In this document: piece by piece, positions 4,659 to 51,884 of the stretch | Layout: every line of letters starts with the position of its first letter | Numbering within the stretch: the stretch's first letter is position 1 | DNA from: Squalus acanthias | Lineage: Eukaryota | Direction: 5' to 3' | DNA: 64,000 nt | Assembly (NCBI GenBank): GCA_030390025.1 | Contig: JASTWF010000048.1 | Span: 868,001 to 932,000 of the forward strand | Translations under genes and position numbers: made by a program | Notes under the pieces: generated by a model | What the model was told of the DNA's origin: nothing | The model's database searches: none | The model's input: only the letters and a program-made list of their open reading frames with translations

Positions 4659-4677
4659 TAGACACTAGGTGGCGGTG
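4659..4677 (+). promoter_or_regulatory. CTCF-like site
   Basis: TAGACACTAGGTGGCGGTG; paralog of the site at 10773. Confidence 0.55.
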
Positions 4678-5042
4678 TATCTCCATAGAATCCTGTGCCA
4701 CAAAATGCTTTGGCACCGAATGAGGAATCGCGCCGCAGATCTACGAATCCCCTTAATGATCAACTCCGCTGGTTCTGTAACCCTTTCACGTTCCGACCAT
4801 TTTGCACCAAAATGCAGTTAGACTTCCTCATGTCTGCTCTTTTATAGTGACGTGACATGAGAAACGCCTGTAAATCAATGAGCACTGTAGTTCTCTCACT
4901 GCTTGTTTGATTTGCATCAGGAACTTAATAAACTGCACATTGTGATTCATTAAATAAGAAGGACTGGAAGGAAGCGAAGGGAGAGGGAAAGAAGGCAAAG
5001 CTTGAATGAAAAAGGTGAGAAAGAAACAAGGGAGAACGATAA

Positions 5043-6095
5043 ACGGATCATTTTCAGGTTGTCAGGCAGTAACTAGTGGGATGCAGCAAGGATCAGTGTT
5101 GGGCCTCAGCTATTTATAATCTATATTAATGACCTATATGAAGGGACCGTGTGTAATGTTTCCAAGATTGATGATGATACAAACATAGGTGGGACAGTAA
5201 GCTGTGAGGAGAAAACAAAGAGACTGCAAAGGGTTATAGATAGATTTATTGAGTGAATGGTAAGGTGGCAGATGGAGTATAATGTCGGGAAATGTGAGGT
5301 TATTTACTTTGATAGGAAGAATAGAAAAACAGATTTTTTTTAAATGGTGAGAAACTTTCAAATGTTGGTGTTCAGAGAGCTTTGGGTGTCCTCGTGCAAT
5401 AAACCCAGAACGTTTTCATGCACATACAGCAAGCAATACGGAAGGCAAATAGCATGTTGACCTTTATTGCAAGGGGGTTGCAGTCTAAGAGTAAGGAAGT
5501 CTTGCTACAATTGTACAGGGCCATGGTGTGACCACACCTGGAGTACTGCGCACAGTTCTGGTCTCCTTATCTAAGGAAGGATATACTTGCCTTGGAGGCG
5601 GTGCAACGAATGTTCACTAGATTGATTCCTGGGACGAGAGATCTGTCCTATGATGAGAGATTGTGTAGAATGGTACTATACTCTCTGGAGTTTAGAAGAA
5701 TGAGAGGTGACCTCATTTAAACATACAATATCCTGAATGGGATTGACAGGGTAGATGCTGAGAGGTTGTTTCCCCTGACTGGAGTATCTAGAACTAGCGG
5801 GCATAGTCTCAGGATAAGGGGTAGGCCATTTAAGACTAAGATGAGGAAGAATTACTTCACTCAGATGGTTGTGAATCTTTGGAATTCTCTGCCCCAGAGG
5901 TCTATGAATGCTGAGTCTTTGAGTATATTCAAGGCTGAGATAGATAGATTGTTGAACTCCAAGGAAATCGAGAGATATGGAGATCGGGCGGGAAAGTGGA
6001 GTTGTGATCGATGATCAGCCATGATCTTATTGAATGGCGGAGTAGGCTCGAGAGGCCGTATGGCCTACTCCCGCTCTTACTTCTTATGATCTTAT
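5043..6095 (+). mobile_element. CR1-like LINE 3' fragment
   Basis: Degenerate RT C-terminal coding sequence (..VVNLWNSLPQR..) plus 3' UTR; paralog at ~11130-12195. Confidence 0.85.
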
Positions 6096-6858
6096 GAAAG
6101 AGAGCATCAAATAAAGACTGTAAAGAATGCAAAAAGAATGAGAGAAATTTAAAGAGAGAGAACGAAATAGAGCGAGATAAAGGTAATTCTGCACCAAACA
6201 CATCACCATCAAAATCAGATGGCAAATTCTCTGGAAAATTATCAATTTTTCCTGTTAATTGTGTTTTTAATTGCTGTCGGGACGATTGCAACTGTTTGAT
6301 GCAACTTCCGGCTCTGACACTATGGCAATCAAACTGAAGCCGATTTATACTGAACCGGAACTGTTTGCAAAACCAGCAGCCACCTGATTACGTCTTCCAC
6401 CAATATGCGTTTCCATTTTCTCCAAAATACTGCTCATACATTTTGATGCCGTGTCAGAATCGACGTGATCTATACATTTCTCACAGTATTCGTTCTGTTT
6501 TTATTTTAAAAAATTGAGAAACGGTTTTCTCAAGCCCCAGGAAACAGGTGTCCAAACCTGGGCATCGCAACTTAGGAACGATTTCAAGGCCATACAGAGC
6601 TTGCAGGGGAGATGTACCACAATTTTTCCAGAGGGTGAGTGACCTCAGTAATTTGGAGAGACCAGAGAAGCTGGGAGAAGGCGGGGATGAGAGTGAGGGA
6701 CCAGCAGCATTCAATCAGACTGTAAGGGGGCGGGCACAGAAGTGAGCTGGCAGCATCTGTCAATCAAACTGAACTGCAGCATCATAAAGCCGCTAGTCGA
6801 CCGCCCGGAGCGCACATTCTTGCTTAATCCCGGTCCGTTTCTCTTCTGCAAACTGTTA

Positions 6859-7295
6859 ATGAAAATGTATTTATCCCGGTGTCTCTTGTCAGCGCTGCTG
6901 TTGCACAGTAAGTCTCTCTCTGAAGTGCCTGGGCGGAGTTTAGCAGCAAATGCAAGCGACCCGATTGTTTTAACAGAATTATTTTCCTCTTATCTGTAGG
7001 TGCAGCGAGCGACAAAGTACAGCATAGTCCGTTTGTAATCTCCGATTCCCTGCTCTCCCCGCTGCAGATCCGCTGTTCTGCGGCGGGTTCCTTCAGCTCA
7101 GTGTTTTCGTAGAACCGCCAGCTCCCAGACGGACAGCTGTTGCTGCTCTTCTATTCTCCCAACTCCGACAGCATCGAGCCGGCGGGAGAGCTGGACGGTT
7201 TCACCGCCTCTAGACTCGACTCCTCCACCTTCCACCTGCAAACGACCGGCCTGCGACCGAACCACTCGGGGGTGTATTACTGCGCCTGGAGCCTT
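6859..7295 (+). pseudogene. TRBV: TCR beta V pseudogene V3 (family A); leader 6859-6907, V exon 7000-7295
   Basis: Conserved FR2 Trp codon is TAG (7110-7112) and the next Tyr is Asn; otherwise a near copy of V1. Confidence 0.9.
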
Positions 7296-7334
7296 CACAG
7301 TGTCACAAGGAGCCGGGGCGGTGCAACATAAACC
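7296..7334 (+). other. 23-RSS of V3
   Basis: CACAGTG + 23 bp + ACATAAACC (nonamer mismatch). Confidence 0.9.
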
Positions 7335-7950
7335 CGGCGCAGCAGAGAACGGGCCGCTGCTTTGCTGGGAGAGGAGTCAACGCAGAGGGTGCATGAGAAG
7401 GGACAGCAGGGTTTAGATACAGCAACAGCACGGATAAGATACAGGAACAACACGGATTAGATGCAGGGGCATCTCGGATAAGATATAGGATCTCCACGGG
7501 ATAGATAGAGAGTAAAGCCCATCATTCACTGATTAAATACAAAATAAAACCCTTCACTCACTCGTCAGATACAGAGTGTGAAGACCATCGCTCACAAGTT
7601 AGACACAGTGTAAAGCACCTCACTCACTGGTTCGATACAGAATGAGTCGGAGAGACAATATAACTACCCTTTCCTCACTCGCTCACCATCACTTCCATCT
7701 CCGATGAAGCCTCCGTGTTGTTACAGTTTGAAAGAACCCCAGACTCCGCCATCAAATGGACCAGCCAGACCGCGGATGACCGGAGGATCTCATTAGCCCC
7801 GCCCCGGAAATAATCAGCCCGATGTGGGAGCCAATGGATATGTAAAGTGAGATTGTCCCCACCTGTCGGAGCATTCAACATTGGAGAGGAGGGGGCAGTA
7901 AATTTCACTCAGTGCACAGAACTTTGAGATATTCTACAATAAAACGGCTC

Positions 7951-7960
7951 AGTGACATCA
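7951..7960 (+). promoter_or_regulatory. V-beta decamer of V4
   Basis: AGTGACATCA. Confidence 0.8.
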
Positions 7961-7994
7961 CACAATAAACATTCGGAACTTTCTCTCTGCAGAG

Positions 7995-8827
7995 ATGGCT
8001 GTTTCTCAGCTCTGGATTCTGTTGTTGGTGTTAACGGGTAAAGATGATCTGGCCGATTCTCACTTTTATTTCCACCTGTGTCCCCTTTGGGATTAACCGA
8101 CTCCTTGGCAATTTCAATGCGAGCGTTGGTGTTGATTCTCTTTCCCTCGGTTTACATGTACCTGCCTCCGTCTCGCTGTCAGTCTGTCTCACTGTCTGTC
8201 TTTCTTCCTCTCTCTGGCGCTCTTTCTCTCTTTATCTCTGTCTGTCTCTGTGTCTCTTCCATTCTCTCTTTGTCTCACTCTTTCTCTTCGTTTGCCCTCT
8301 CTCTCTCCGCTTGTGCTCCTTCACGTCGGCTGGTTTATCTCTCCTTTTTCACGCTCTGTATCTCTCTCTCTTCCTCTCGCTCTTTCTCTGTCTCCCTCTG
8401 AATCACTGCGACTATACCTCCCTTAACAAACCTCTCTTTCGCTCTCCCATCCTGTGCATTTTCATGGCGGATGTCGATCTATACATTGTCACTGAGTTTA
8501 CCTCTATCTCTTTCCCTCTGTTTTACAGATGTGGGGGCCGTGCTGATACAACAGACCCCCGCTTCCATATCCAGTTCCCCGGGCACCCAAGTTACCATCG
8601 AATGCCTTTACACAGAAGCAGCAGCTGGCTCCTATTTCTACTGGTACCGGTGGCATCCTGACCAGGAGCCGCAGAACCTTTTCTATTCCAGCATCCCTGA
8701 AACGGTCACTCCCTCCGGTCAGGTGGACGGTTTCACCGCCAGGAGACCCGACCACACACACTTCTACCTGGAATCCACCAGTCTGCGGGCAAATAACTCT
8801 GCCGTGTATTACTGCGCCTGGAGTCTG
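7995..8827 (+). CDS. TRBV: TCR beta V segment V4 (family B), potentially functional; leader 7995-8037, V exon 8529-8827
   Basis: Intact leader, splice sites and V frame ending YYCAWSL. Confidence 0.88.
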
Positions 8828-8866
8828 CACAGTAACTCAGACAGATGGAGGAGCTCTACAAAAACC
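8828..8866 (+). other. 23-RSS of V4
   Basis: CACAGTA + 23 bp + ACAAAAACC. Confidence 0.93.
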
Positions 8867-8917
8867 CCGAAGCGGCAGCAAATAACTGTGGGAAATAGAT
8901 CTGTCTTTTTGTCTTTG

Positions 8918-9841
8918 CGTCATAGTGTCACAGAAAAATAACGGCACACAAGGAGGCCTATGGCCTTTCGAGTCCGCGCCGACTCTCTGTAGAGCAATCA
9001 AGTCATTCCCATTCCCCTGCCCTATCCCCGTAGCCCTGCAAGATAATTTCCCTCATTTAGTGTCTCCGCTTCCAGCACATCCGTCGTCAGCGAGTTACAT
9101 GTCATCACCACTCGCTGCATAAAACAGTTTTTCCTCACAAACGCCCCTGTATCTCTTGCCCAAAATCTTATATCTGTGCCATATAGTCCTTGTACCAACA
9201 ACCAGTGGGAACAGCCTTTCCCCGTCTAGCCTATCCAAACCCGCCATCACCTTGTACACCTCTATCAAATTATCCCTCAACCTCCTTTGCTCTAATGAAA
9301 ACAGATCCAGCTTCTCCAAACTGTCCTTGCAGCTAAGATCCCCGGAACCATTCTGGTAAATCTCCTCTGCACCCTCTCACGGGCCTTCAGATCCTTCCTA
9401 AAGTGTGGTTATCAGAACTGGACGTTAAACTCCAGTTGTGGCCTCACAAGCACTTTATAAAGGTTCAGCACAGCTCATCTACTTTTGTACTAAATACCTC
9501 TATTTAAGAAGCCCAAGATCCCATAAGCTTTGCTAACCACTCTCTCAATATGTCCTGCCACCATCAGGGACCTATGCACATTAATTCCCATGTCCCTCTG
9601 TCCCTGCACACACTTCAAAACTGTGCCACTAAGTGTATATTGCCTCTCCCTGTTAATTCTGCCAAAATGCATCGCATCACACTTCTCTGTATTAAGTTCC
9701 ATCTGCAACTTGTCTGCCCATTCTGCTAGCCTTTCTATATCCTGTTGCAGTCGATTGGTATCATTATCACTGTTTGCCAGACCCCCAAGTTTGCTGTAAT
9801 CGACAAATTTAGAAATTCTACTCAGTATTCCAATATCCAGT
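8918..9841 (-). mobile_element. CR1-like LINE 3' fragment
   Basis: Paralog of 2762-3712; ORFs 9095-9319 and 9490-9873 are RT remnants. Confidence 0.85.
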
Positions 9842-10772
9842 CTGTCTGTGTGTCTCTTCATCAATCCATCCATCTATCTGGTAACGATCTATCTATCGAA
9901 AGCTCATCTATCTGCCTAAATAACTATCTATATGGCATCTCTCTATCGATGTATCTATCTATCCATCTATTTATCTGCTGCTATTCTGTACATAATGTTG
10001 TATGAAACTTGATATATATTGGTTTGAATTTGTATTGATATAGATTCATCGTCTTACTCTCTTTCACTTCAGATTATTTCAAAACTGTACCAAGATTTCG
10101 GATGTCATTCTCGTATCTTTTACATTTTAACAACAGATGTGGTAAGCGGGCTCCTGTTAGTGTTGAATCAACGACCGGTGTCATATTAGAGGGAGTTACG
10201 CATAACTGCCGACTATGCCAATGTTTCTCAAGCTCACGCTATCAGAGAATGTGCTTATCCCAACTGTTATTTTCGCTATCGCAATAGCGACGAGCGCTGC
10301 GCTCATTATCACAGAATCATAGAATGATACAGCACAGAAGGTGGCCATTCGGTCCATCGTTCCTGTGTTGGCTCTTTGAAAGAGCTATCCAATTATGCCC
10401 TTTTCCATGACCCGTTCCCCATAGCCCTGAAAGGATTTCCCCTTCAAGCATGTTTCCAATTCGTTTTCGAAAGTTACAATTGAATCTGCTCCCACCACGT
10501 TTTCAGTAGCGCATTCCACATTATAACAACTCGATGAGAACAGAAGTTCAACTCATCACGGGCTCTGGTTGTTTAGGTAATTACCTTAACTCAGTGTCCT
10601 CTAGTTTCCTTGCAGTAACGTCGATGTAATTATATGTAACAAGCGTCAACGTCTGAAGGAGGGGAGAAAATAATTGGAAGCAGGATCAATTAGCCGACAC
10701 GACCTGAAAATGCCGACGATACCGGTTGTACTGGGAAAACCTCAAAACTCAGTTGCTAATAGTTGGACGTTC

Positions 10773-10791
10773 TAGCCACTAGGTGGCGCTG
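10773..10791 (+). promoter_or_regulatory. CTCF site (near consensus)
   Basis: TAGCCACTAGGTGGCGCTG vs core CCASYAGRKGGCRS. Confidence 0.75.
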
Positions 10792-11129
10792 CATCTCCAT
10801 TGAATCCTTCGCCACGACCTGCTTTGGCACCGAATGAGCAATCCCGCCGCAGATCTACGAATTCCCTTAATGTTCAACTCCACTCGTTCTGTAACCCTTT
10901 CAAGTTCCGAACATTTTGCACCCATGTCTGCTCTTTTATAGTGACGTGACATGAGAAACGCCTGTAAATGAATGCCCACCGTATTTCTTTCACTGCTTGT
11001 TTGATTTGCATCAGGAACTGAATAAACTGCACATTCTGATTGTTTAAATAAGAAAGACAGGAAGGAAGCGAAGAGAGAGGGAAAGAAGGCAAAGCTTTAA
11101 TGAAAAAGGTGAGAAAGAAACAAGAGAGA

Positions 11130-12195
11130 AGGATAATTGACCTTTTTCAGGTTGGCAGGCTGTAACTAGTGGGGTGCAGCAAGGATCAGTGCTGGGGCCT
11201 CAGCTATTTATAATCTATATTAATGACCTAGATGAAGGGACCGAGTGCAATGTATCCAAGATTGATGATGATACAAAGCTAGGTGGGACAGTAAGCTGTG
11301 AGTAGAACACAAAGAGACTGCAAAAGGTTATAGAAAGATAAGTGCGTGGACAGTAAGGTGGCAGATGGAGTATAATGTCGGGAATGTGAGGTTATTTACT
11401 TTGATAGGAAGAATAGAAAAACAGAATAATTTTAAATGGTGAGAAACTTTCAAATATTGGTGTTCAGAGAGATTTGGGTGTCCTCGTGCAATAAACCCAG
11501 AAAGTTTCCATGCAGGTACAGCAAGGAATACTGAAGGTAAACAGCATGTTGGCCTTTATTGCAAGGGGGTTGCAGTCTAAGAGTAAGGAAGTCTTGCTAC
11601 AATTGTACAGGGCCTTGGTGAGACCATACCTGGAGTACTGTTAACAGTTTTGTTCACCTTATCTAAGGAACGATATACTTGCCTTGGAGGCGGTGCAACA
11701 AAGGTTCACTCGATTGATTCCTGGGATGAGAGGGCAGTTCTCTTATTAGAGATTGTGTAGAATGGGCCTATACTCTCTGGAGTTTAGAAGAATGAGAGGT
11801 GATCTCATTGAAACATACAAGATTCTGAAGGGGATTGACAGGGTAGAAGCTGAATGGTTGATGCCCCTGACTGGAGTGTTTGGAACTAGGAGGCATAGTC
11901 TCAGGATAAAGGGTAGGCAATTTAAGACTAATCTGAGGAAGAATTTCTTCACTCAGAGGCTTGTGAATCTTTGGAATTCTCTGCCCGAAAGGGCTGTAAA
12001 TGCTGAGTCTTTTGAGTATATTCAAGGCTGAGATAAATAGATTTTTGAACTCTAGGGGAATCAAGGGCTATCGAGACCGGGCGGGAAAGTGGAGTTGAGA
12101 TCGATGATCAGCCATGATCTTATTGAATGACGCAGCAGGCTCGAGGAGCCGTATGGCCTACTTCTGTTCTTACTTCTTATATTCTTATGTTCTTA
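11130..12195 (+). mobile_element. CR1-like LINE 3' fragment
   Basis: ORF 11753-12031 GLYSLEFRRMRGDLIETYKILKG. Confidence 0.85.
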
Positions 12196-12880
12196 TGAAA
12201 CAATGCAGCAAAGAAGGACAGTAAAGAATGCAAAAAGAATGAGAGATGTTTAATGAGAGAGAAAGAAATAGACCGAGAGAAAGGTAATTCTGCATCAAAT
12301 CAAACACCATCGAAATCAGATGGCAAATTACCTGGACAAATATCATTATTTCCAGTGAATTGTGTTTAGTTGCTGTCGGGACGTTTGCGACTGTTTGATG
12401 CAACTTCCGGCTTTGACACTATGCCAATCAAACTGATCTGATTTATGCTGAATCGGAACTGTTTGGAAAAGCAGCAGCAACCTGATTACATCTTCCACCA
12501 CGATGCGTTTCAATTTCAATTTTTGTTTTTAAATATTGAGAAACGGTTTTCTCCAGCCCCAGGAAACAGGTGTCCAAACCTGGGCACCTCAAATTAGGAA
12601 GGATGTCAAGGCCTTACAGACCTTGCAGGGGAGATGTACCACCATTTTTCCAGAGGGTGAGTGAGTTTCGTAATTTGGAGAAACCAGAGAACCTGGGAGG
12701 AGGCGGGGATGAGAGTGAGGGACCAACAGCTGTCAATCAGACCGTAAGAGGGCGGGCACAGAAGTGAGTGGGCAGCAGCTGTCAATCAAACTGAACTGCA
12801 GCGTCGTAAAGCCGCTACCCGGCCGCCCGGAGCGCACATACTTGCACAATTCTGGTCCATTTCTCTTGCGAAAACTGTTA

Positions 12881-13317
12881 ATGAAAATGCAATTATCCCG
12901 GTGTCTGTTGTCTGCGCTGCTGTTGCACAGTAAGTCTCTCTCTGAAATGCCTGGGAGCAGTTTAGCTGCAAATGTCAGCGTACGCTTTGTTTTAACCGGA
13001 TTATTTTCCTCCTATCTGTAGGTGTAGCGAGCGACAAAGTACAACAAAGTCCGGCTGTAATCTCCGATTCCCTGCACTCCCCGATTCAGATCCGCTGTTC
13101 TGCGGAGGGTTCCATTAGCTCAGAGTTTTCCTGGTACCGCCAGCTCCCAGACGGACAGCTGTTGCTGCTCTTCTACTCTCGCATCTCCGGCAGCATCGAG
13201 CCGGCGGAAGAGGTAGACGGCTTCATCGCCTCCAGACCCGACCACTCCAACTTCCACCTGCAAACGACCCGCCTGCGAGCGAAACACTCGGGGGTGTATT
13301 ACTGCGCTTGGAGCCTT
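12881..13317 (+). CDS. TRBV: TCR beta V segment V5 (family A), potentially functional; leader 12881-12929, V exon 13022-13317
   Basis: Leader MKMQLSRCLLSALLLH/gtaagt; V exon DKVQQSPAV..IRC..WYRQ..YYCAWSL translated open by hand. Confidence 0.9.
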
Positions 13318-13356
13318 CACAGTGATACAAGGAGCCGGGGCGGTGCAACAAAAACC
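13318..13356 (+). other. 23-RSS of V5
   Basis: CACAGTG + 23 bp + ACAAAAACC. Confidence 0.97.
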
Positions 13357-13667
13357 TGGTGCAGCAGAGAACGGGCCGCAGGCCCGAACCTGTCGCTGCT
13401 TTGCTGGGTGTGGAGTCAACGCAGAATGTGCATGAGAAGCGACAGCAAGGGTTAGATACAGGAACAGCACTGAGAAGATAGAGGATCAGCACGGATTAGA
13501 TACAGGGTTACCTCGGATAAGATATAGGATCAGCACGGGATAGATAGAGAGTAACCCCATCATTCACTGTTTAAACACAAAATAAAACCCTTCACTCACT
13601 CGTTAGATGTAGAGTGAAGACCAACGCTCACAAGTTAGACACAGTATAAAGCCTCTCACTCACTGGT

Positions 13668-14625
13668 TAGAATCATAGAGTCATAGAGTTATACAGCACA
13701 GAAAGAGGCCCTTCGGGCCATCGTGTCCGCGCCGGCCATCAAGCCCTGTCTATTCTAATCCCATTTTCCAGCACTTGGTCCGTAGCCTTGTACACTATGG
13801 CGTTTCATGTGCTCATCTAAATGCTTCTTGAATGTTGTGAGGGTTCGTGCCTCTACCACCCTTTCAGGCAGTGATTTCTAGATTCCAACCACCCTCTGGG
13901 TGAAAACGTTTTTCCTCAAAACCCCTATAAACCTCCTGCCCCTTACCTTGAAACTATGCCCCCTGGTTATTGATCCCTCTACTAAGGGGAAAAGTTCAAT
14001 TCTAGATACCCTACCTATGCCACTCATAATGTTGTACACCTCAATCAGGTCCCCCCTCAGCCTTCTCTGCTCTAAGGAAAACAACCCCAGCCTGTCCAGT
14101 CTCTCTTCATAGCTGAAGCACTGCTGCCCAGATAACATCCTGGTAAATCTCCTCTGCACCCTCTGCATTGCAATCACATCCTTCCTATAGTGTGGCGACC
14201 AGAACTGCACACAGTATTCCAGCTGTGGCCTAACTAGCGTTTTGTACAGCTCCATCATAACCTCCCTGCTCTTATATTCTATGCCTCGGCTAATGAAGGC
14301 AAGTATCCCATATGCCTTTTTAACCACCTTATCTACCTGCCCTGCTGCCTTCAGGGATCAATGTAGATGCACACCAAGGTCCCTCTGATCCTTTGTCCTT
14401 TCTAGGGTCCTACAATTCATTGTGTATCCCCTTGCCTTGTTAGACCTCCCAAAATGCATCACCTCACACATTTCAGGGTTAATGGCCCATCTGACCAACC
14501 CGTCTATATCCTCCTGTAGCCTGAGGCTTTCCCTCCTCGCTATTTACCACTCTACCAATTTTCGTGTCATCTGCGAACTTACTGACCATACCTCCTACAT
14601 TCATATCTAAATCATTAATGTACAT
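13668..14625 (-). mobile_element. CR1-like LINE 3' fragment, present only in the third duplicated unit
   Basis: ORF 13878-14327 LVRPQLEYCVQFWSPHY..LGLFSLEQRRLRGDLIEV; absent from the matching V1-V2 and V3-V4 intervals. Confidence 0.9.
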
Positions 14626-14936
14626 AAATAATGAGACAGACAGATAGTATAACTCCCCTATCTCACTCCCAAACTATCACTGCATTCTCAGATGAAGCCT
14701 CCGTGTTGTTGCATTTTTAAAGTCCCCTGACTCCGCCAACAAAGAGATGAGGCAGACCGCCGATGAACGGGGGACCTCATTAGCCCCGCCCCGGACATCA
14801 CCACCCCGAAGTGGAAGCCAATGAGCAAGTAAAGAGAGATTGTCCCCGCCCATGCGAACATTCAACACTGGAGAGGTGGGGACTGTAAATTCCTCTCAGT
14901 GTCCAGAATTTTGAGATATTCAATAATATAAGGCTC

Positions 14937-14946
14937 AGTGACATCA
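14937..14946 (+). promoter_or_regulatory. V-beta decamer of V6
   Basis: AGTGACATCA. Confidence 0.75.
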
Positions 14947-14980
14947 TACAATAAGCACTCGGATCTTTCAATCTCCAGAG

Positions 14981-15856: not shown

Positions 15857-15895
15857 CACAGTGACTCAGAGAGATGGAGAAGCTCAACAAAAACC
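15857..15895 (+). other. 23-RSS of V6
   Basis: CACAGTG + 23 bp + ACAAAAACC. Confidence 0.96.
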
Positions 15896-16775: not shown

Positions 16776-17180
16776 CGGTGGCATAGTGGATAGCACTGGT
16801 GCCTCACAGCGCCAGGGACCCGAGTTCGAATCTGACCTCGGGTGACTGTCTGTGTGGAGTTTGTACATTCTCCCCGTGTCTGCGTGGGATTTCTCCGGGT
16901 GCTCCGGTTTCCTCCCACAGTCCAAAAATGTGCGGGTTAGGTTGATTCGGCTGTGATAAATCGACCCTTAGTGTTAGGGGGGAATTAAATATGTGGGGGG
17001 ATGGGATATGTTAGGGGGAATTAAATACGTGGGGTTACGGGGGTAGGGTGGGATATGTGTACTGTGGGGATTAAAGCAGGGACAGGGTACTGGATTTGAA
17101 TGATCAGCCATGATCGTATTGAATGGTGAAGCAGGCTCGATGGGCCGAATGGCCTACTCCTGCTCCTAGTTTCTATGTTA
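16776..17180 (+). mobile_element. tRNA-derived V-SINE (HE1-like)
   Basis: A box TGGCATAGTGG, B box GTTCGAATC, V-domain TCTCCCCGTGTCTGCGTGGG..CCGGTTTCCTCCCACAGTCCAAA. Confidence 0.85.
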
Positions 17181-37216: not shown

Positions 37217-37255
37217 CACAGTGATTCAAACAGGTGCAGGGCTGGTCCAAAACCA
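37217..37255 (+). other. 23-RSS of V9 (weak nonamer)
   Basis: CACAGTG + 23 bp + CCAAAACCA. Confidence 0.85.
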
Positions 37256-41584: not shown

Positions 41585-42709
41585 ATGTGTACTGTTTACC
41601 AATATCTACTGTTGCTGTTTCTCCCAGGTTACTGTTCCTACTTTGTGGGGCAAGTCGGGCGCGGCTTAATCTGTTTCTGGCAGCTCCGCTTGCTGTTGCA
41701 AAACACAAGCTCCTATTCAGAAGATCATTGAAAGAATTTATTACTGTTTTAAGCAGCAAGTTGTTGTGATCTGGAATGCACCGTCTGAACGGCAGGCGGA
41801 AGCAGATTCAACAAAACTTTCGAAGGAGAATTAGATAAAAACCTGAAGGGGGCATATGTGCAGGACTTTGGAGAGAGAGCAGGGGAGTGGAACTAATTGG
41901 ATAACAATTTCAAAACGCCGGATCAGGCAAGATGGGCCGAATGGCCACCGGCTGTGATGTATCATCCTATGATTATATAAACCATGTTATTTTTTGGCCC
42001 AATGGTCTATTAATTTTCCAAATATATTTTTCTTAGTTTGGCGCCTTTACCTGAAGTTTGGACGGGCCTAGACGCATTGCCCACGTGAGTGGGCAGAACG
42101 AGTCAGTCTCGATTATCTGGTTGACGGTGCAAAACTCTGCAACCCAACCTGATTTCGCGGCACAGAATAGGGCAACTGGCTGACATTTGTCCTCCCCAGA
42201 AATGGGCACTGAGGCGACTGTAACGATTTAGCCTCGCTCCATTTGTGCTGCGCGGACACTTCGCGTCCTCAGACGACGAGTCTGTATTTTAGCTCAGCTA
42301 ACTGTTCGACTGTGTTGTGTATCGCGTGTTTAGACAGAAAATGTCTCTCTATCCTTATTGTGCCTTTGTCTGATTTAATTCGAACTGTTTCTCATGTTCC
42401 TCTGTAGCCCCTTGCAGGAGTGCTCTCGTTTCCCAGTGGTGGAACCGGTTGTCGGTTGGAGTGGTGCGCACGGCGGAAATGCACTGCTACCAGAACGACA
42501 CGAGCGAGATGTATATGTACTGGTACCGGCAGCACAGCGGTGCAGGTTTGCAGCCCATAGCGACATCGGTTGGCACCTCTGAGTCCACGTCTGAAGACGG
42601 TTTCAAGGAGAGGTTTGAAGTCACCAGTCCCGATCTTAAGTCCTGCAACCTGAAAATACTGAGTGTGGAGGCGGATGACACAGCGCTGTATTACTGCGCT
42701 GCTGGAGAT
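41585..42709 (+). CDS. TRBV: TCR beta V segment V10 (family D), potentially functional; leader 41585-41627, V exon 42408-42709
   Basis: Leader MCTVYQYLLLLFLP/gttact; ctgtag acceptor; open frame to ALYYCAAGD; AEMHCYQNDT motif typical of fish TRBV. Confidence 0.85.
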
Positions 42710-42748
42710 CACAGTGATTCAAACAGGTGCAGAGCTGGGTCAAAAACA
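42710..42748 (+). other. 23-RSS of V10
   Basis: CACAGTG + 23 bp + TCAAAAACA. Confidence 0.9.
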
Positions 42749-43675
42749 TACCACCCATTAAAAGTGAACCGAAAGAGACCAAAATTCAAATAAGCAGCGC
42801 TCCTAAAGCCGCCTGCTCATTGATGAAGCCTCACTCCGTTTTCTAGTTTTATTGAGATAAATGAAGAGTGATTTTTGGGTCCCAGATCAAGCGGAGTGCT
42901 TCATCCAAATTATTTATGTGTCCTAATATAATACCTGGCCTAAAAGATTGAAATTGCGAGCACAGAATGCATAAAATAATCATGCGTTCCCTCGAGTTTA
43001 GAAGATTAAAGCGTGATCTAATCAAGCAGTTCACGAAGTTTAAAAGATTTGATAGGATATTCCATAGTATTACATAAAATAATTTACAGGGGTCCCCGCA
43101 GCATGCGTCATTGTTTACAGGAGATCCCCGGGAGTGTGGCCGCATTTACATGTATGGAGTGGTTGAGGCAATAGCACAGATTCAATTAAGGGCGACCTAT
43201 ATAAATATATGAGATGGAAGGAATAGAAGGCTATGTAGTCGGGTGAGATGTAGTAGTGTGCAGCATAAACACCGGCACAGACCAGTTGGACAGGATTCCG
43301 TGCTGTAACTTCGATGTAATTCTATTTAACAAGCGTCAGCATCTGATGGAGAGGTGAAAATAATTGGAAGGCGGATCAATTTGAGGAAATGACTTGAAAA
43401 TGCATTCGAAATCGGTTATAATGGGAAATTCCCAGGTGCTTGCAGTTACAGCTTGTAGCCACGGGTTGGTGCTGTATCTTCCTTTCATCATGTGCCCCGA
43501 CCTGCTATGACACAGAATGAGCAACGCCGCCGCAGATCTACCAGTCTACTTAATGGTCAGCTCCGCTCGTTCTGTAACGGTTTTACCCCCGACTTTTTTG
43601 CCAAAAGCGCCATTATATTTCCCGATGTCTGTTCTTTCACAGTGATGTGGTATGAGCAGCGCCTGTTACCAATAG

Positions 43676-44141
43676 AAGAAAGAAAGACCTACATTTATTT
43701 AGGGCCTTTCACGACCACCGGAAGTCTCAAAGCGCTTTACAGTCACTGAAGTACTTTTGAAGTGGAGTCACTGTTGTAATGTGGGAAACGCTGAAGCCAA
43801 TTCGCGCACAGAAATCTCCCACAAACAGCGATGTGATAAATAATCAGATAATCTGTTTCTGTTATGTTGGTTGAGGAATAAATATTGGACAGTATACCGG
43901 GGATAACTCTCCTAATCTGCTTCGAAATAGTGCCATGGGATCTCTAACATCCACCTGAAAGAGCAGACATGGGCTCGGTTTAACGATTCATCCGAAAGAC
44001 AGCACCTTCGACAGTGCAGCGCTCACTCAGCACTGGAGTGTCAGCCTAGCTTTATGTGCTCAAGTCCCTGGAGTGGGATTATGAACCTACAACTTTCTGA
44101 CTCAAAGGCGAGTGTGCAACCAACTGAGCCACAGCTGACAC
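43676..44141 (-). mobile_element. DeuSINE-like element (copy at ~50320-50790; fragments at ~22035-22290, ~32870-33160, ~38760-39000, ~56830-57190)
   Basis: Minus-strand tRNA-like head (GTGGCTCAGTTGGT..GTTCAT) and shared core ATTTAGCGCCTTTCACGACC..GCCATGGGATCT. Confidence 0.65.
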
Positions 44142-45241
44142 AATGGATAATCCGCGTTATTTTCGTTCACTGTGTGTTTTTATTTGCAAAAGGAACTTAG
44201 TACTCCGCACATGGTGATTGAACAATTCAAACGAATTGGAAGGAAGCGTAGAGAGGCGCAAAGAAGACCGGATAAAGAAGGAGGGAACAAGAAAAAAGAA
44301 GGAAATAAAGTAATTAAGGCATAAGAATATAAGAAATTCGGAGCAGGAGTAGGCCATTTGGCACTTTGAGCCTGCTCCGCCATTCAATGACATCATGGGT
44401 GAACTTCTACCTCATCTCCACTTTCCTGCACTATCCCCATATCCCTAGGATCCCTTAATATTCAAAAATCTATCGATCTCTGTCTTGAATATACTCAACA
44501 ACTGAGCCTCCACCCAGCTCTGTTTTATTAGCAAACATGGATATATTACATTTGGTTCCGTCATCCAAATCATTGATGTAGATTGTGAATAGCTAAGGCT
44601 CAGACCCTGATCCTTGCGATACCCAACTAGTTACAGCCTGCTAAACAAGGAAGAAAGAAAAAAACAAAAAAATATAGAAAGAAAGAAGGAATGAAAGAAA
44701 GCAAGGATGAAAGAAAGCAAGGAGGAAGGAAAGCAAGAAAGAAAGCCAGCAAGAAAGAAAGAAAGAAAGTGAGGGAAGGAAATCGATAAAAAAAAAGGAG
44801 GGAAGCAATGAAAGCAAGAAAGAGAGAGAGAAAGAAAATGAAATAAGAAATAGAAAGGAAGACAGAGAAAGAGAAAGAAGGAACGAAATAATTAAACACA
44901 CAAACAAACAAAGATAATTCTGTACCTAATCAAGCAACATCAAAATCAGATGCGAAATTGTTTGGCTCAATATTTATTTTTTTGCTGTTAATTAGGTTCG
45001 GTTGATGTTGGGACGCTTGCAGCTGTTTTAATGCAACATATGGAATCTAGGGCCGGTTGCAGATGCTTGATTCAACTTTGGGCCTGTGAAACAATGCCAG
45101 TCAAACTGGTCATTGTTAAGATTGAGTCCTGGTCTTTTTGCAAAACCAGCATCCGCCTGGTTACATCTTACCGCCACGATGCTTCTCAATGTTCTACAAC
45201 GTCATTATTTCTGGTGCCGTGTCGACAAAAACTTGAGAAAT

Positions 45242-45994
45242 GGCCCTGAAATTCCGTTCCCTACGGGTGAGTACGTGTTGTGTTCTCACCAGTAGGGCCA
45301 ACGGAAGTGGCGGTTTCGCGCATGAACTGCGCATGCGCTGCAAACCGGAACTTCCGTTCTCTTGAAGGAAGGGATTCGCAGTTCAACTGAGTGTGCCGAG
45401 ACATGGAACTTTCCCTTTTGTTACAGGTTTCTCCGTGCGGGTAAGTCCCAAGCAGCTGCGCGTGGAAAAAGCAGAGGCAAGGCCTGCTTTTAACATGGTA
45501 AGAGGTGAATTAAATAAAATTGAAACATTTTTTCAACAGATTTTTCATTTTTAAATACTTTAAAGAAAGGCACGTTTATTTTTAGCCCCGTTAAAAACTT
45601 TAATTAATTTTTTCAAAAAATTAAATTTTTGTATAAAATAGTTAATTTATGTAATATATAGTTATTTTAAAAATCCATTGTTTTTAAAAAAAAATATTTG
45701 ACATTTTACTCAGGTTTTGGGACCGATCTTTATTCATAGATTTGGCAGGTCTTCCTGTCAAATCGATGAAGGGAGATTCCCTGCTCCGATAGGCTCCCCA
45801 TGGCCGACGTGATCCCAGGGGACGCTGCGAAATAGTTGCGACCCTGGGATACGCGAGCACTGCACACCGGCAGCTGGAGGAGACCCAGGATCCGAATCCC
45901 AGGATCGGAATCACAGCACAACGGCAGCCGCGCTATGTAAGTGCAGGTCGGGGGCTTGCGCCCGCGGGAAGCCTCCGACCCGAAATTCTGGGCT
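45242..45994. mobile_element. Non-autonomous DNA transposon (MITE, PIF/Harbinger-like)
   Basis: Imperfect TIR GGCCCTGAAATT..AAATTCTGGGCT flanked by a 3-bp AAT duplication; copy at 51885-52632. Confidence 0.7.
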
Positions 45995-46503
45995 AATATC
46001 TTTTATCTTTTCATGTTTAAGAGTTGAGAAACGCTTTCCTCCAGCCCCAGCGGAAGTAACGTGTCCCATTCTGAGCAGAACGCATTAGATAGAGTGCCAA
46101 TGTCTTGGAGAAGTTGCCGCAGAGATTACCAGGGACGAGGGATTTCATTGATCTGTAGAGACAACAGAAGCTGGGCTGTTCTCCTTAGAGCAGAGAGCGT
46201 GAAGCGGAGCTGCACCAGAATGCTATCAGGGATGAGCAACTTCATTTAAGCGTGGCTGACCGCCTGATTTAAAGAGTGATCTGGCGGGACAAGAGGTTTC
46301 TTTGGCGCCCAACAATTCTCTTGCCGCTGAGCGCCCTAAAATTTCGATTAGCCTTTGTGCTGTTCCTTTTGCGGTTGGGGGGTTTAAGGTTGCAGTTGAC
46401 GCAATTTCCGTTTATGACGCTTTCCCGGCATTTCAAGGGGCAATGCAGAAGCGGCGCCTCTCCACACGCACAGCTGCAACCGAACGATTGCTTCTGGAAC
46501 AAG

Positions 46504-46549
46504 ATGCGCTTAAATTTCCTGCAACTAACTCTTTTATTTATGAAGCCCC
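46504..46549 (+). pseudogene. Orphan family-E leader exon with promoter (its V exon is missing beyond the duplication junction)
   Basis: MRLNFLQLTLLFMKP/gtaagc, same peptide as the V12 leader; intron breaks at ~46710. Confidence 0.85.
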
Positions 46550-48221
46550 GTAAGCGTCAGGATTCTTTAACGACATTCTTACTCAGATTCATTTAAACAA
46601 TGATGATAATATGATTCATGAGTGATATAGTGGCACGATTATATGCCGAGACTCGATTATTTAATATGCTATTACCATAATGTTTTGTTTAACCAGTGCA
46701 TGTTTTAACTAAGCGAGGTTGATAACAGCTAATCAACGGCTTACGGCAACACTATCCAGTAGTAGAACTATGAAGCTGCATTACATCGCAGACTACTTGG
46801 CCCTTCGTGATTGTGGGTTCACATTGCTGAAGTAAAAATATTTTTCCTACCATCTCTCTTCACTCTTATTAAAAGTTTCATTCGATGCACCTTCGCCACT
46901 AATTCCCCAAGACGAGGAAACAGTCCTCATAGAATCATAGAATGAATCAGCACAGAAGGAGGCCTTTCGGCCCACAGTGCCTATGCCAGCTCTTAGAAAG
47001 AGCGATCCAAATAGTCCCACTATGCTGCGTTCTTTTTGCCATAGCCCTGGAAATCTTTCCTTTTCAAGTATATATATCCAATCCCTTTTTGAAAATTACT
47101 ATTCAATCTGCTTCCTCCACCCTTTCAGGCAGTGCATTCCAGAAGATATTAACCAACTGGATCAAAAATAATATTCCTAATCTTCCCTCTAGTTGTTTTG
47201 CAAATCACATTAACCCTCTGACCTCTGGTTACGGACGCTTCTGGTACTGGAACTTTTTTCTTACTATTTATTCTATAAAAAAACATTCATGATTTCGAGC
47301 ATCTCTATTAAATCACCCTTTAATCTTCTCTACTCTAAGGAGAAGAGTCTCAGCTACTCCAGTCTCTCCACCTATCATATATCATGGTTTACAAGGTTAT
47401 GACGGGTTTGGATAGGATAAACGAGGAAAGGTTGTTCGCACTAGTTGATGGTACAAGGACTAGGGGGGAGGGTCAGAGATTTCAAGGTTTTGACCAAGAG
47501 ATAGAGGGAGGATGTGAGGAAAAACTTTTTTACGCAGCTAGTCTTAGGACCGGGGATTCGCTGCCGACAGAAGTGATGGAAGCGGAGAGACTCAATGTTT
47601 TCAAGGGGAGACAGGATAGGCACTTGAGGGAAATAAACTTGCAGGGCTACGGGGATAGAGCGGGGGGAAATGGGACTGACTGGATTGCTCCACAGTGAGC
47701 GGGCACAGACTCGATGGACCGAATTACCTCCAACTCTGCCGCATGAATATATGACTCGATCTGCACAATGCAAACACAAAATGCTGGAAATACTCAGCAG
47801 GTTAGGCAGCATCGGTGGAGTGAGAAACAGAGTTAACGTTTCAGGTCGACGAAGGATTCCTCTCTCCACAGATGCTGCCTGAGCTGTTGAGTGTTTCCAG
47901 CATTTTATGCTTTTATTTCAGATCGACAGCATATTGCCACAATGTAGATATATATCAACCGTTGCAAACAACATGAAACGCCCAATCATCTCTAAAAGAT
48001 TGCGTATTGCCACTTAATCCCTTGTAATTATTAGTCTCACATTTATACGTGAGAACCATCAGCTCCGCTTTAATAAATTAGGGGAAGTTCTGCTGGGCGC
48101 TCTTGCGACAACGTCACTTCCGCACTCATCCACAAAACGATGTGCAGGGGCATTAGCAGTGCAGTGCGTAAAAAGCGCAGCTCAGCTGGGAGGTGGAAAG
48201 GACGGTTGCAGTTCTGACATC

Positions 48222-49353
48222 ATGTGTACTGTTTACCAATATCTACTGTTGCTGTTTCTCCCAGGTTACTGTTCCTACTTTGTGGGGCAAGTCGGGCGCG
48301 GCTTAATCTGTTTCTGGCAACTCCGCTTGCTGTTGCAAATCACAAGCTCCTATTCCGAAGATCATTGAAATAAATTATTACTGTTTTAAGCAGCAAGTTG
48401 TTGTGATCTGGAATGCACCGTCTGAACGGCAGGCGGACGCAGATTCGACAGTTACTTTCGAAGGAGAATTGGATAAAAACCTGAAGGGGACATATGTGCA
48501 GGACTTTGGAGATAGAGCAGGGGAGTGGAACTAATTGGATAGCAATTTCAAAACGCCGGATCAGGCAAGATGGGCCGAATGGACACCGGCTGTGATGTAT
48601 TATTCTATGATTCTATAAACCAGGTTATTTTTTGGCCCAATGTTATATTAATTTTCCTGATATATTTTTCTTAGGTTGGCGCCTTGCCTTTACCTGAAGT
48701 TTGGACGGGCCTAGGCGCATTGCCCACATGAGTGGGCAGGACGAGTCAGTCTCGATGATCTGGTTGACGGTGCAAAACTGTGCAACCCAACCTGACTTCG
48801 TGGCGTAGAATAGGGCAGCTGGCTGACATTTGTCCTCCCCAGAAATGGGCACTGAGGCCAAGTGTAACGATTTAGCATTGCTCCATTTGTGCTCTGCGGA
48901 TACTTGGCGTCCACAGATGACGAGTCTGTAGTTTAGCTCAGCGAGCTGTTCGACTGTGGTGTGTATCGCGTTTTTAGACAGAAAATGTCTCTCTATCCTT
49001 ATTGTGCCTGTTTCTGATTTAATCCGATGTGTTTCTCATGTTCCTCTGTAGCCCCTTGCAGGAGTGCTCTCATTTCCCAGTGGTGGAACCGGTTGTCGGT
49101 TGGAGTGGGGCGCACGGCGGAAATGCACTGCTACCAGAACGACACGAGCGAGATGTATATGTACTGGTACCGGCAGCACAGCGGTGCAGGGTTGCAGCTC
49201 ATAGCGACATCGGTTGGCACCTCTGAGCCCACGCCTGAAGACGGTTTCAAGGAGAGGTTTGAAGTCACCAGACCCGATCTTAAGTCCTGCAGCCTGAAAA
49301 TACTGAGTGTGGAGGCGGCTGACACAGCGCTGTATTACTGCGCTGCTGGAGAT
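48222..49353 (+). CDS. TRBV: TCR beta V segment V11 (family D), potentially functional; leader 48222-48264, V exon 49052-49353
   Basis: Intact leader and splice sites; ALISQWWNRL..MHC..WYRQ..DTALYYCAAGD. Confidence 0.9.
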
Positions 49354-49392
49354 CACAGTGATTCAAACAGGTGCAGGGCTGGTTCAAAAACA
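49354..49392 (+). other. 23-RSS of V11
   Basis: CACAGTG + 23 bp + TCAAAAACA. Confidence 0.9.
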
Positions 49393-51884
49393 TACCACCC
49401 AGTAACAGTGAACTGAAAGAGACGAAAACTCAGTTAAACAGCGCTCATAAAGCCGACTGCTCATTGATGAAGCCTCACTCCGTTTTCTAGTTTTATTGAG
49501 ATAAATGAAGAGTGATTTTTGGGTCCCAGATCAAGCGGAGTGCTTCATCCAAATTATTTATGTGTCCTAATATAATACCTGGCCTAAAAGATTGAAATTG
49601 CGAGCACAGAATGCATAGAATAATCATGCGTTCCCTCGAGTTCAGAAGATTAAAGCGTGATCTAATCAAGCAGTTCAAGAAGTTTAAAAGATTTGATAGG
49701 ATATTCCATAGTATTACATAAAATAATTTACAGGGGTCCCCGCAGCATGCGTCATTGTTTACAGGAGATCCCCGGGAGTGTGGCCGTATTTACACGTATG
49801 GAGTGGTTGAGGTAATAGCACAGATTGAATTAAGGGCGACCTATATAAATATATGAGATGGAAGGAATAGAAGGCTATGTAGTCGGGTGAGATGTAGTAG
49901 TGTGCAGCATAAACACCGGCACAGACCAGTTGGACAGGATTCCGTGCTGTAACTTCGATGTAATTCTATTTAACAAGCGTCAGCATCTGATGGAGAGGTG
50001 AAAATAATTGGAAGGCGGATCAATTTGAGGAAATGACTTGAAAATGCATTCGAAATCGGTTATAATGGGAAATTCCCAGGTGCTTGCAGTTACAGCTTGT
50101 AGCCACGGGTTGGTGCTGTATCTTCCTTTCATCATGTGCCCCGACCTGCTATGACACAGAATGAGCAACGCCGCCGCAGATCTACCAGTCTACTTAATGG
50201 TCAGCTCCGCTCGTTCTGTAACGGTTTTACCCCCCGACTTTTTTGCCAAAAGCGCCATTATTTTTCCCGATGTCTGTTCTTTCACAGTGATGTGGTATGA
50301 GCAGCGCCTGTTACCAATAGAAGAAAGAAATACCTGCATTTATTTAGCGCCTTTCACGACCACCGGAAGTCTCAAAGCGCTTTACAGTCACTGAAGTACT
50401 TTTGAAGTGGAGTCACTGTTGTAATGTGGAAAACGCTGAAGCCAATTCGCGCACAGCAATCTCCTACAAACAGCGATGTGATAAATAATCAGATAATCTG
50501 TTTCTGTTATGTTGGTTGAGGAATAAATATTGGACAGTATACCGGGGATAACTCTCCTAATCTGCTTCGAAATAGTGCCATGGGATCTCTTAACATCCAC
50601 CTGAAAGAGCAGACATGGGCTCGGTTTAACGATTCATCCGAAAGACAGCACCTTCGACAGTGCAGCGCTCACTCAGCACTGGAGTGTCAGCCTAGCTTTA
50701 TGTGCTCAAGTCCCTGGAGTGGGATTATGAACCTACAACCTTCTGACTCAGAGGCGAGTGTGCTACCAACTGAGCCACAGCTGACACAATGGATAATCCG
50801 CGTTATTTTCGTTCACTGTGTGTTTTTATTTGCAAAAGGAACTTAGTACTCCGCACATGGTGATTGAACAATTCAAACGAATTGGAAGGAAGCGTAGAGA
50901 GGCGCAAAGAAGACCGGTTAAAGAAGGAGGGAACAAGAAAAAAGAAGGAAATAAAGTAATTAAGGCATAAGAATATAAGAAATCGGAGCAGGAGTAGGCC
51001 ATTTGGCACTTCGAGCCTGCTCCGCCATTCAATGAGATCATGGGTGAACTTGTACCTCATCTCCACTTTCCTGCACTATCCCCATATCCCTAGAATCCCT
51101 TAATATTCAAAAATCTATCGATCTCTGTCTTGAATATACTCAACAACTGAGCCTCCACCCAGCTCTGTTTATTAGCAAACATGGATATATTACATTTGGT
51201 TCCGTCATCCAAATCATTGATGTAGATTGTGAATAGCTAAGGCCCAGACCCTGATCGTTGCGATACCCAACTAGTTACAGCCTGCTAAACAAGAAAGAAA
51301 GAAAAAAACAAAGAAATATAGAAAGAAAGAAGGAATGAAAGAAAGCAAGGATGAAAGAAATCAAGGAGGAAGGAAAGCAAGAAAGAAAGCCAGCAAGAAA
51401 GAAAGAAAGAAAGTGAGGGAAGGAAATCGATAAAAAAAAGGAGGGAAGCAATGAAAGCAAGAAAGAGAGAGAGAAAGAAAATGAAATAAGAAATAGAAAG
51501 GAAGACAGAGAAAGAGAAAGAAGGAACGAAATAATTAAACACACAAACAAACAAAGATAATTCTGTACCTAATCAAGCAACATCAAAATCAGATGCGAAA
51601 TTGTTTGGCTCAATATTTATTTTTTTGCTGTTAATTAGGTTCGGTTGATGTTGGGACGCTTGCAGCTGTTTTAATGCAACATATGGAATCTAGGGCCGGT
51701 TGCAGATGCTTGATTCAACTTTGGGCCTGTGAAACAATGCCAGTCAAACTGGTCATTGTTAAGATTGAGTCCTGGTCTATTTGCAAAACCAGCATCCGCC
51801 TGGTTACATCTTACCGCCACGATGCTTCTCAATGTTCTACAACGTCATTATTTCTGATGCCGTGTCGACAAAAACTTGAGAAAT

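Follow-up and report, generated by a model that had tools for sequence, protein, structure and literature searches.

Organization of the locus

The 64,000-nucleotide stretch of Squalus acanthias DNA analysed here (the window) is part of a shark TRB locus of at least 2.2 Mb, in which a V-D-J-C1 unit faces a C2-J-D-V unit as two mirror-image halves. The TRB assignment draws on V segments with 23-RSSs, D segments with 12- and 23-RSSs and a GGGACAG core (a conserved D core is documented in PMC11754216), J segments with 12-RSSs, and a TRBC carrying a transmembrane lysine. The window holds 13 V segments, every one on the plus strand (Table 1); the locus-wide count is 225, taken from 228 calls of which three spurious ones were removed beforehand. 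The two units have different D and J segments (35 versus 4 J candidates), their C exons share only 39% identity, and in ten shared families the median of the best V identities between arms ranges from 89 to 97%; on these features an assembly artefact was rejected as the source of the mirror. New in this analysis are the mirrored twin locus, its second, 39%-identical TRB constant region, and the locus-wide test of CTCF-site orientation. A literature search that left most subscription journals outside its reach returned no paper on CTCF sites in shark TRB and none on a tail-to-tail shark TRB.

Table 1. Features of the window (positions in the window; distances run from the CTCF site to the leader-like ATG, with repeats removed)
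Feature	Position	Strand	Remarks
TRBV segments with 23-RSS (13)	1129..60223	+	D-proximal end of left V arm
TRBV heptamers, first seven	1129, 2676, 7296, 8828, 13318, 15857, 22780	+	
TRBV heptamers, last six	31515, 37217, 42710, 49354, 54153, 60185	+	
CTCF core motif, cassette A	4659..4677	+	19.1 bits; upstream motif decayed (TATAG)
Relic leader module	6405..6468	+	in-frame stop; 657 bp from 4659
Next V after 6405 relic	RSS 7296	+	carries stop; own leader at 6865
CTCF core motif, cassette A	10773..10791	+	23.8 bits
Truncated relic leader	12503..12522	+	480 bp from 10773
Next V after 12503 relic	RSS 13318	+	own leader at 12887
TGCAGTT (19403) and weak core (19418), cassette A	19403..19436	+	12.5 bits
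Intact TRBV	21836..22818	+	leader 21836–21881 spliced in frame to V exon 22471–22779; 23-RSS from 22780; 716 bp from 19418
Tandem CTCF motifs (29751, 29780)	29751..29798	+	14.3 and 23.6 bits
TRBV, leader homologous to cassette leader module	30494..31553	+	V exon frameshifted in assembly; 23-RSS from 31515; 494 bp from 29780
TGCAGTT and decayed core (43456), cassette A	43441..43474	+	7.2 bits; 746 bp behind RSS 42710; relic leader 45179 at 897 bp
Duplicate of 43456 (core 50100)	50085..50118	+	7.2 bits; 746 bp behind RSS 49354; relic leader 51822 at 897 bp
CTCF-like motif	61940..61958	+	13.5 bits; single copy

CTCF motifs in the window

A sequence-only reading of the window had listed seven CTCF-like motifs pointing the same way as the V genes, and their sequences, coordinates and orientation are correct. 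It had called 43456 and 50100 degenerate copies and 29751 a weaker tandem site. When scored with the JASPAR matrix MA0139.1 (maximum 27.2 bits), only 4659, 10773 and 29780 are strong, matching the zinc finger 3–7 core consensus above chance; 19418 and 29751 are marginal; and 43456 and 50100 show no excess over chance, so that they are counted through flank homology alone. Against expectations from 30 Markov simulations of both strands, the window holds three plus-strand and no minus-strand sites at 18 bits or more (expected 0.07), six and none at 12 bits or more (2.8), six and three at 10 bits or more (7.6), and ten and seven at 8 bits or more (17.6). The plus-strand site at 61940 was absent from the original list.

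The same reading had noted a TGCAGTT upstream motif at the spacing appropriate for CTCF. The offset does fit: TGCAG begins 18 nt ahead of the first core C, among the window sites at 19418, 43456 and 50100 only, a spacing that leaves room for a motif of 9 bp and a linker of 6 bp before a TGG-like triplet. The zinc finger 9–11 upstream motif is optional, occurring at about 13–15% of sites with a linker of 2–7 bp (PMC12885311). However, TGCAGTT accompanies the three weakest cores among the seven sites and none of the strong ones, and in aligned copies of the cassette described below TGCAG is a minority state (2/45, versus 26/45 for TGTAG; 19418 lies outside these 45).

Cassette A and its leader modules

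Five of the window sites are members of one repeated unit, cassette A, which has 48 copies and is confined to this contig (C3311). All 34 of its genome matches fall on C3311, in a search that passes over very common words, and copies dispersed inside a genome-wide repeat, the pattern of transposon spread, were not seen. The tandem motifs at 29751..29798 show distant homology to cassette A with the core included (E 6.6e-7), which disappears once the core is masked; 29780 probably belongs to the cassette as a remote relative.

Each site had been described as lying 0.5–0.7 kb before a V promoter and leader. Four of the six cases are at or near that distance and two are at 897 bp. A leader module is indeed present, but in four of the six it is a relic, interrupted by a stop (6405 and 51822), truncated (12503), or open but lacking a V exon that belongs to it (45179). 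The leader is real and spliced in frame in a single case, that after 19418, making this TRBV the sole one in the window with a working leader behind the cassette; the leader after 29780 belongs to the frameshifted V. Most cassette A copies stand before a relic leader. Because 19 right-arm copies lie 683–686 bp behind an RSS, an RSS-downstream element was also considered; it was rejected as the primary relation, since the upstream neighbour varies (VF0, 3, 5, 8, 10) and a leader module follows in 46 of 49 hits.

The proposal that these sites spread with V duplication is supported, and the locus is TRB, as that proposal assumed. We infer that the cassette originated upstream of the leader of one V clan and then reached both arms as V blocks were duplicated, and that it often outlived its V exon and is now partly decaying. 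Twelve of 45 copies score under 8 bits, and scores are lower in the right arm than in the left (p = 0.005); 43456, 50100 and much of the right-arm set have probably lost their activity or kept little of it. Near D1, seven sites of the left arm, namely 29780 and six members of cassette A, retain 18–24 bits. Score bore no relation to the intactness of the next V (p = 0.38), a split that is rough because the automatic flag for an intact V overlooks N-terminal frameshifts, such as that of the V at 31515.

Conservation of the cores

Greater conservation of cores than flanks, which the original list had set as an expectation across species, appears among paralogs of the pooled families and only in part for cassette A. 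Paralog copies were chosen by their flanks only, and nine families were seeded, with singletons excluded. High-information columns of the pooled families carry 89 changes versus 119 expected (Poisson p = 0.002, optimistic as are the other conservation p-values, since families were picked for high scores, flank windows overlap and the expected-change simulation starts from the consensus), and motif-score loss is below that of the median flank window in eight of nine families. For cassette A, score loss is smaller than in 96% of 102 flank windows, but the substitution count is not significantly below that of the flanks in either comparison (19 vs 23.6, p = 0.20; 27 vs 28.3, p = 0.45). Conservation among paralogs thus appears moderate.

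Across species, variation at 29751/29780 affects 6 of 38 positions in the cores and 18 of about 82 in the flanks. In comparison organisms B and C, which lose a high-information C, the score of the 29780 core is 18.2 bits, and in organism D it is 23.7 bits; the retained scores are not unusual relative to random change (p = 0.09–0.27). Organism A is identical over 29680–29870 and is not an independent comparison. Contigs from three organisms (A, B and D) extend across the stretch homologous to the 10773 region, and organism E partly covers the cassette; the 40 best-supported differences shown, of 187, all lie outside the 10773 core, where about 1.8 would be expected, a deficit that is not significant.

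These data bear on whether cassette A is mostly fossil—an ancestral site, duplicated in blocks and decaying neutrally with its relic leader, while other families may function. The relic leaders, the weaker right-arm copies and a core substitution count equal to that of the flanks are in keeping with such a history, whereas the low cost of core changes to motif score, the strength kept by the seven copies near D1 and the lack of best-supported differences in the 10773 core speak against it; we regard it as quite unlikely.

Orientation and density of sites across the locus

The original list carried the caution that most sites are paralogous, so that their shared orientation is not independent evidence. 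Locus-wide, the difficulty can be overcome by counting families defined as flank-unrelated. The tested arms amount to 1.305 Mb, repeat- and exon-masked (48% masked). A site is inward when it points toward the central D-J-C region, its strand flipping between the arms. At 15 bits or more, the two-strand scan found 102 inward and 5 outward sites; all 12 families face inward (p = 0.0005). At 18 bits or more the counts are 52 and 2, with 7/7 families inward (p = 0.016), and at 12 bits or more 155 and 12, with 13/17 families inward (p = 0.049) and all ten multi-copy families among them. Families show no bias at 10 bits or more (17 versus 11, p = 0.34), and in unmasked arms at 12 bits or more they divide 15 versus 7 (p = 0.13). 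Held-out distal stretches gave 41 inward and 0 outward sites on the left (260 kb) and 18 and 1 on the right (68 kb) at 15 bits or more; these sites, at least in the two end stretches, are mostly paralogs of known families. At the same threshold the arms hold 110 sites, versus 1 in 199.5 kb of control DNA (84 versus 5 per Mb), an approximately 17-fold density that depends on this small control and its single site.

Could the motifs be chance matches, transposon-borne sequences, or sites for another factor, such as the E-proteins (CAGGTG/CAGATG)? The E-box hexamer is present in families B, B2 and C and in the 29780 site, and in an unmasked test 1 of 60 permuted matrices gave 104 sites. Conversely, the hexamer is absent from the listed cores of families A, D, E and F; in masked arms at 12 bits or more, none of 120 column-permuted matrices reaches the site count and one reaches the family imbalance; the reversed matrix finds two sites at 15 bits or more; and the listed genome matches fall on this contig (34/34 for family A, and the best 40 of 183 candidates for family E). 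Such origins are very improbable.

Throughout the locus, site orientation equals the direction of V transcription, so that local and looping causes are inseparable by this criterion. The sites could act locally, as insulators or in accessibility between neighbouring V promoters and RSSs, their orientation reflecting a fixed relation to each V. Fixed offsets would suit this role: +73 bp behind the RSS heptamer in most VF2 genes (with a site inside 1.2 kb in 29 of 29), close to +255 in VF5, and 0.5–0.9 kb before the leader for cassette A. An insulating role is also suggested for upstream VH sites in PMC6746451. Against this stand the strong opposing sites at the centre of the locus that looping requires, at C3311:1049723 (21.1 bits), 1101123 (19.2) and 949688 (21.6), and the looping of mouse V-beta CBEs in this layout to the recombination centre (PMC10772921). 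A purely local role is, in our assessment, unlikely.

A proposed looping model and candidate opposing sites

The most probable explanation, in our judgement, is that the window motifs represent one of about a dozen unrelated CTCF-motif families in a mirror-image TRB locus, all facing inward, and that the strong copies likely represent genuine CTCF sites, which would anchor cohesin loops bringing V segments to the D-J recombination centres. By analogy with mouse Tcrb, a predicted forward site immediately before a V promoter would halt promoter-loaded cohesin on one side, and extrusion would then run toward D-J until an opposing site. Candidate opposing sites for the left arm are C3311:953384 (weak, 12.7 bits), 1049723 and 1101123, and for the right arm 958357 and 949688. 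The sequence-only reading had proposed a search for convergent sites near D-J-C. Strong candidates are present for the left arm (1049723 and 1101123), but none that is strong was found near the right unit's own D-J-C: only 1093231 (13.6 bits) and 1022049 (12.6 bits) precede 958357 and 949688, which lie at the other unit. Also counted against the looping explanation, a frameshift interrupts the V that follows the strongest single site. In skate, TADs follow a CTCF orientation code (PMC10115646). The inward orientation of unrelated families suggests that sharks likely fold TRB for gene assembly much as mice do.

Comparison with known loci

Sequence homology between the shark sites and mammalian CBEs is not expected; it is the layout that resembles the CBEs of mouse Tcrb and Igh, whether through shared descent, as the sequence-only reading suggested, or through convergence. 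For mouse Tcrb, the same type of locus, published work (PMC10772921; PMC5859386; bioRxiv 10.1101/2024.10.13.618029) describes, as in the shark, V-region sites all oriented toward D-J-C, a site 2–3 kb upstream of D and an opposing site beyond C, CBE3, to which shark 1049723 would correspond. Mouse has 18 V sites with occupancy on a single main arm, whereas the shark has more than 160 predicted sites in two facing arms; CBE1 in mouse points against the V sites, whereas the shark sites 2.2 kb upstream of both D segments have the direction of the arm to which they belong; and occupancy and function are established in mouse, the shark sites being predictions.

Mouse Igh, although a different locus, has an 'upstream' class of VH CTCF sites located about 800 bp, 2–3 kb or 5–6 kb before the leader (PMC6746451). 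Like cassette A, this class occupies a fixed spot before the V leader in transcription orientation, has spread by V duplication and coexists with RSS-associated classes. In the shark the leader is usually a relic, and the likeness is one of layout. The RSS-adjacent family lies about 34 bp behind the nonamer in shark; the corresponding distances are 17–19 bp (mouse) and 19 or 48 bp (human). Salmonid and pike TRB (PMC10464911) likewise has, on a single chromosome, a pair of oppositely oriented V-D-J-C units. Those units are head-to-head with V in the middle and have nearly identical J segments, whereas the shark units meet tail-to-tail, with D-J-C at the centre, and differ in J number and C sequence as above.

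The second constant region and a two-armed reading

Protein searches with the C2 exon, in which none of 39 candidates scored at E 1e-20 or 1e-3, are weak evidence that covers longer proteins only. A PDB search with the whole exon gave matches swamped by multi-domain antibody chains, and in a protein atlas C2 fell in generic C1-set clusters only. The catshark TCR complex reportedly described by Pettinello et al. in 2017 may bear on this second constant region.

Tentatively, and with rather low confidence, the looping explanation could be extended to a single two-armed folding unit, in which the D-upstream CTCF sites would face the V sites of the opposite arm, so that looping would join each V arm with the D-J segments of the other unit. 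By deletion and by inversion, the two arms might then supply two highly divergent C regions, giving two beta isotypes from one V pool, with an inward code ancestral to jawed vertebrates. Whether CTCF-guided folding dates back to the beginnings of V(D)J recombination, a question for which the functional data considered come from mouse and human, becomes testable through the shared inward orientation of unrelated families in shark TRB. The mirrored layout amounts to a natural experiment, since for each arm one of the two D-J-C units is in inverted orientation, and deletional joining can be compared with inversional, and scanning with diffusion.

A mirrored TRB locus

The window occupies positions 868001-932000 of contig C3311. 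Analysis of this contig from its start to 60 kb, from 268 to 1932 kb and from 2138 kb to its end places the window within a tail-to-tail twin TRB. The 468-1932 kb stretch carries 225 V segments with a 23-RSS (228 called, three discarded), all on the plus strand as far as 945928 and all on the minus strand from 1105646 on; a further 74 in the held-out stretches obey the same strand rule, extending the V range from 4164 to 2205602. Two facing D-J-C units lie between the arms, within C3311:946000-1105600 (Table). The assignment to TRB follows from these facing V-D-J-C units, from the 73% and 57% identity of the constant region C1 to shark proteins named TCR beta, from a D core matching the conserved TRBD core (PMC11754216), and from the second constant region, C2, the first half of which finds TCR beta chains as its best single-domain PDB matches. 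C1 and C2 share 39% identity, and a protein search for relatives of the C2 exon scored none among 39 candidates. The exons found for the second unit look intact, with splice sites present.

The V arms are mirror-ordered, with V families VF1/VF2 distal, VF5-9 in the middle and VF0/3/4 proximal, and cross-arm V identity (about 89-97%) far exceeds that of C1 and C2; together these suggest exchange or recent block duplication between the arms. The topology is opposite to that described for salmonid TRB in PMC10464911. We found no paper on CTCF sites or tail-to-tail layout in shark TRB within the literature covered, most subscription journals being outside it. At C3311:2206000-2258000 the right V arm ends in some 50 kb of simple repeat rich in CT, beyond which lie repeated units of roughly 7.7 kb that contain long open frames.

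Principal features of the locus (coordinates up to 64000 are window positions, larger ones contig positions)
Feature	Position	Strand	Details
CTCF-like core	4659	+	19.1 bits
CTCF-like core	10773	+	23.8 bits
CTCF-like core	19418	+	12.5 bits
CTCF-like core	29751	+	14.3 bits
CTCF-like core	29780	+	23.6 bits
CTCF-like cores	43456 and 50100	+	7.2 bits each
Leader	21836		genuine; splices to intact V
Leader	30494		next V frameshifted
Opposing site, right arm	949688		21.6 bits
Opposing site, left arm	953384		12.7 bits
Opposing site, right arm	958357	+	14.5 bits; 2.2 kb upstream of D1
D1	960533	+	GGGACAGGGGGGA
J candidates, D1/C1 unit	centre of locus		n=35
C1	1014588	+	transmembrane exon also present
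Opposing site, left arm	1049723		21.1 bits
C2-unit transmembrane exon	about 1062192	-	carries lysine
C2	1073400-1073684	-	faces C1 unit
J, C2 unit		-	n=4
D2	1098968	-	GGGACAGCAACAAC
Opposing site, left arm	1101123	-	19.2 bits; 2.2 kb upstream of D2

Inward-pointing CTCF motifs

All seven CTCF-like motifs of the sequence-only reading were recovered at their positions, scored with a typed-in version of the JASPAR MA0139.1 matrix. The window holds three plus-strand and no minus-strand sites of at least 18 bits (0.07 expected), six and none of at least 12 bits (2.8 expected), and 17 sites of at least 8 bits (17.6 expected); because this last count equals chance, 43456 and 50100 are not motifs by their own score. 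The TGCAGTT upstream motif claimed for three sites held up in its spacing: at 19418, 43456 and 50100, TGCAG starts 18 nt 5' of the core's first C, within the linker range given in PMC12885311 and PMC10484683; these cores are, however, the weakest, and TGTAG occupies the position in 26 of 45 aligned copies of cassette A, the recurring V-upstream block. Between two V genes, at window 25600-27670, a short unit of the GTACCTGACCCTCCTACG type is repeated in tandem over roughly 2 kb.

Across the locus, sites whose flanks are homologous were merged into one family, the core being masked for this comparison, and sites were called inward when directed toward the central D-J-C region. Unmasked, inward and outward sites numbered 53 and 2 at ≥18 bits (families 7 vs 0), 103 and 7 at ≥15 bits (12 vs 2, p=0.013) and 161 and 22 at ≥12 bits (15 vs 7, p=0.13). 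With repeats and V exons masked, they numbered 102 and 5 at ≥15 bits (12/12 families inward, p=0.0005), 155 and 12 at ≥12 bits (13 vs 4, p=0.049) and 191 and 28 at ≥10 bits (17 vs 11, p=0.34). Among permuted matrices at ≥12 bits, 0/120 reached the site count and 1/120 the family imbalance, and the held-out stretches gave 41 inward to 0 outward and 18 to 1 at ≥15 bits. The arms contain 110 such sites in 1.305 Mb, against one in 199.5 kb of control DNA. Of the 225 V segments, 119 have an inward site of ≥12 bits no more than 3 kb from the RSS. Because the two arms share V families, the flip of strand from one to the other does not count as independent evidence; agreement among unrelated families does. 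Were the families to share a remote ancestor, the motif would have outlasted its flanks, again pointing to selection. The window motifs are genuine, in part decayed, components of an inward CTCF array that spans the locus, and they are likely functional.

VF2 genes (471309 and paralogs) carry a near-palindromic CTCF motif about 73 bp past the RSS heptamer start, resembling RSS-associated VH sites; it reaches 23 bits in the forward direction and about 17 in the reverse. In all 29 of these genes an inward site occurs within 1.2 kb.

Cassette A and its leaders

A genome search with cassette A returned 34 matches, all on this contig, and iterated nhmmer gave 49 hits representing 48 copies, which in both arms share the direction of neighbouring V genes. 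The cassette comprises, in order, the core, a ATTTGCAAAAGG block at about +230, a GA-rich tract, a ACTTCCGG module and a leader-like ATG. In three copies free of repeats, 721-760 bp separate the core from the end of the module. With repeats subtracted, core-to-ATG distances in the window are 657, 480, 716, 494, 897 and 897 bp, and four of the six leaders are relics. The site at 29780 is probably a distant member, because it matches the family model (E 6.6e-7, solely with the core included) and is followed by a homologous leader. Cassette A probably arose in one V clan and was duplicated with V blocks, the V exon often being lost afterwards. It would work like the "upstream" class of mouse Igh VH sites, which PMC6746451 places some 800 bp ahead of the leader. 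A second leader type with an intact GT donor occurs at window 46504, an orphan lacking its own V exon, and at 53146.

Conservation of the cores

Paralogs were chosen by flanks alone and nine families pooled. High-information core columns showed 71 changes against 100 expected (89 against 119 with a base-context control), and motif-score loss fell under the median flank window in 8/9 families; these tests are optimistic because families were selected for their scores. Cassette A alone was not significant by substitution count (p=0.20 and 0.45), its motif-score loss was smaller than in 96% of flank windows, 12/45 copies score below 8 bits, and those in the right arm are weaker than those in the left.

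The 10773 cassette is covered by contigs of comparison organisms A (possibly the source of this DNA), B and D; its core contains none of the 40 differences listed, of 187 (not significant). In the single-copy pair 29751/29780, 6/38 core positions vary across species versus 18 of about 82 in the flanks. The 29780 core scores 18.2 bits in B and C (p 0.13 under random change) and 23.7 bits in D (p 0.09; contig depth 3.7).

Proposed folding

According to PMC10772921, PMC5859386 and bioRxiv 2024.10.13.618029, 18 V-region CTCF-binding elements (CBEs) in mouse Tcrb oppose three around D-J, cohesin loads at V promoters and extrudes from the nearby CBE, and Trbv1 joins without needing convergent RSSs; Igh, in contrast, requires them (bioRxiv 2020.06.30.181222). 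A CTCF orientation code is present at skate TAD borders (PMC10115646). By analogy with mouse, a forward site lying 5' to the promoter of a V gene would serve as the anchor for loops that extend toward D-J. Opposing sites exist for the left arm; for the right, the scanned centre yielded no strong one before 958357 and 949688. About 2.2 kb upstream of each D is a motif that shares the orientation of the V arm on its side and therefore faces the other arm, opposite to the arrangement of mouse CBE1; this suggests possible cross-unit loops between the two TRB units.
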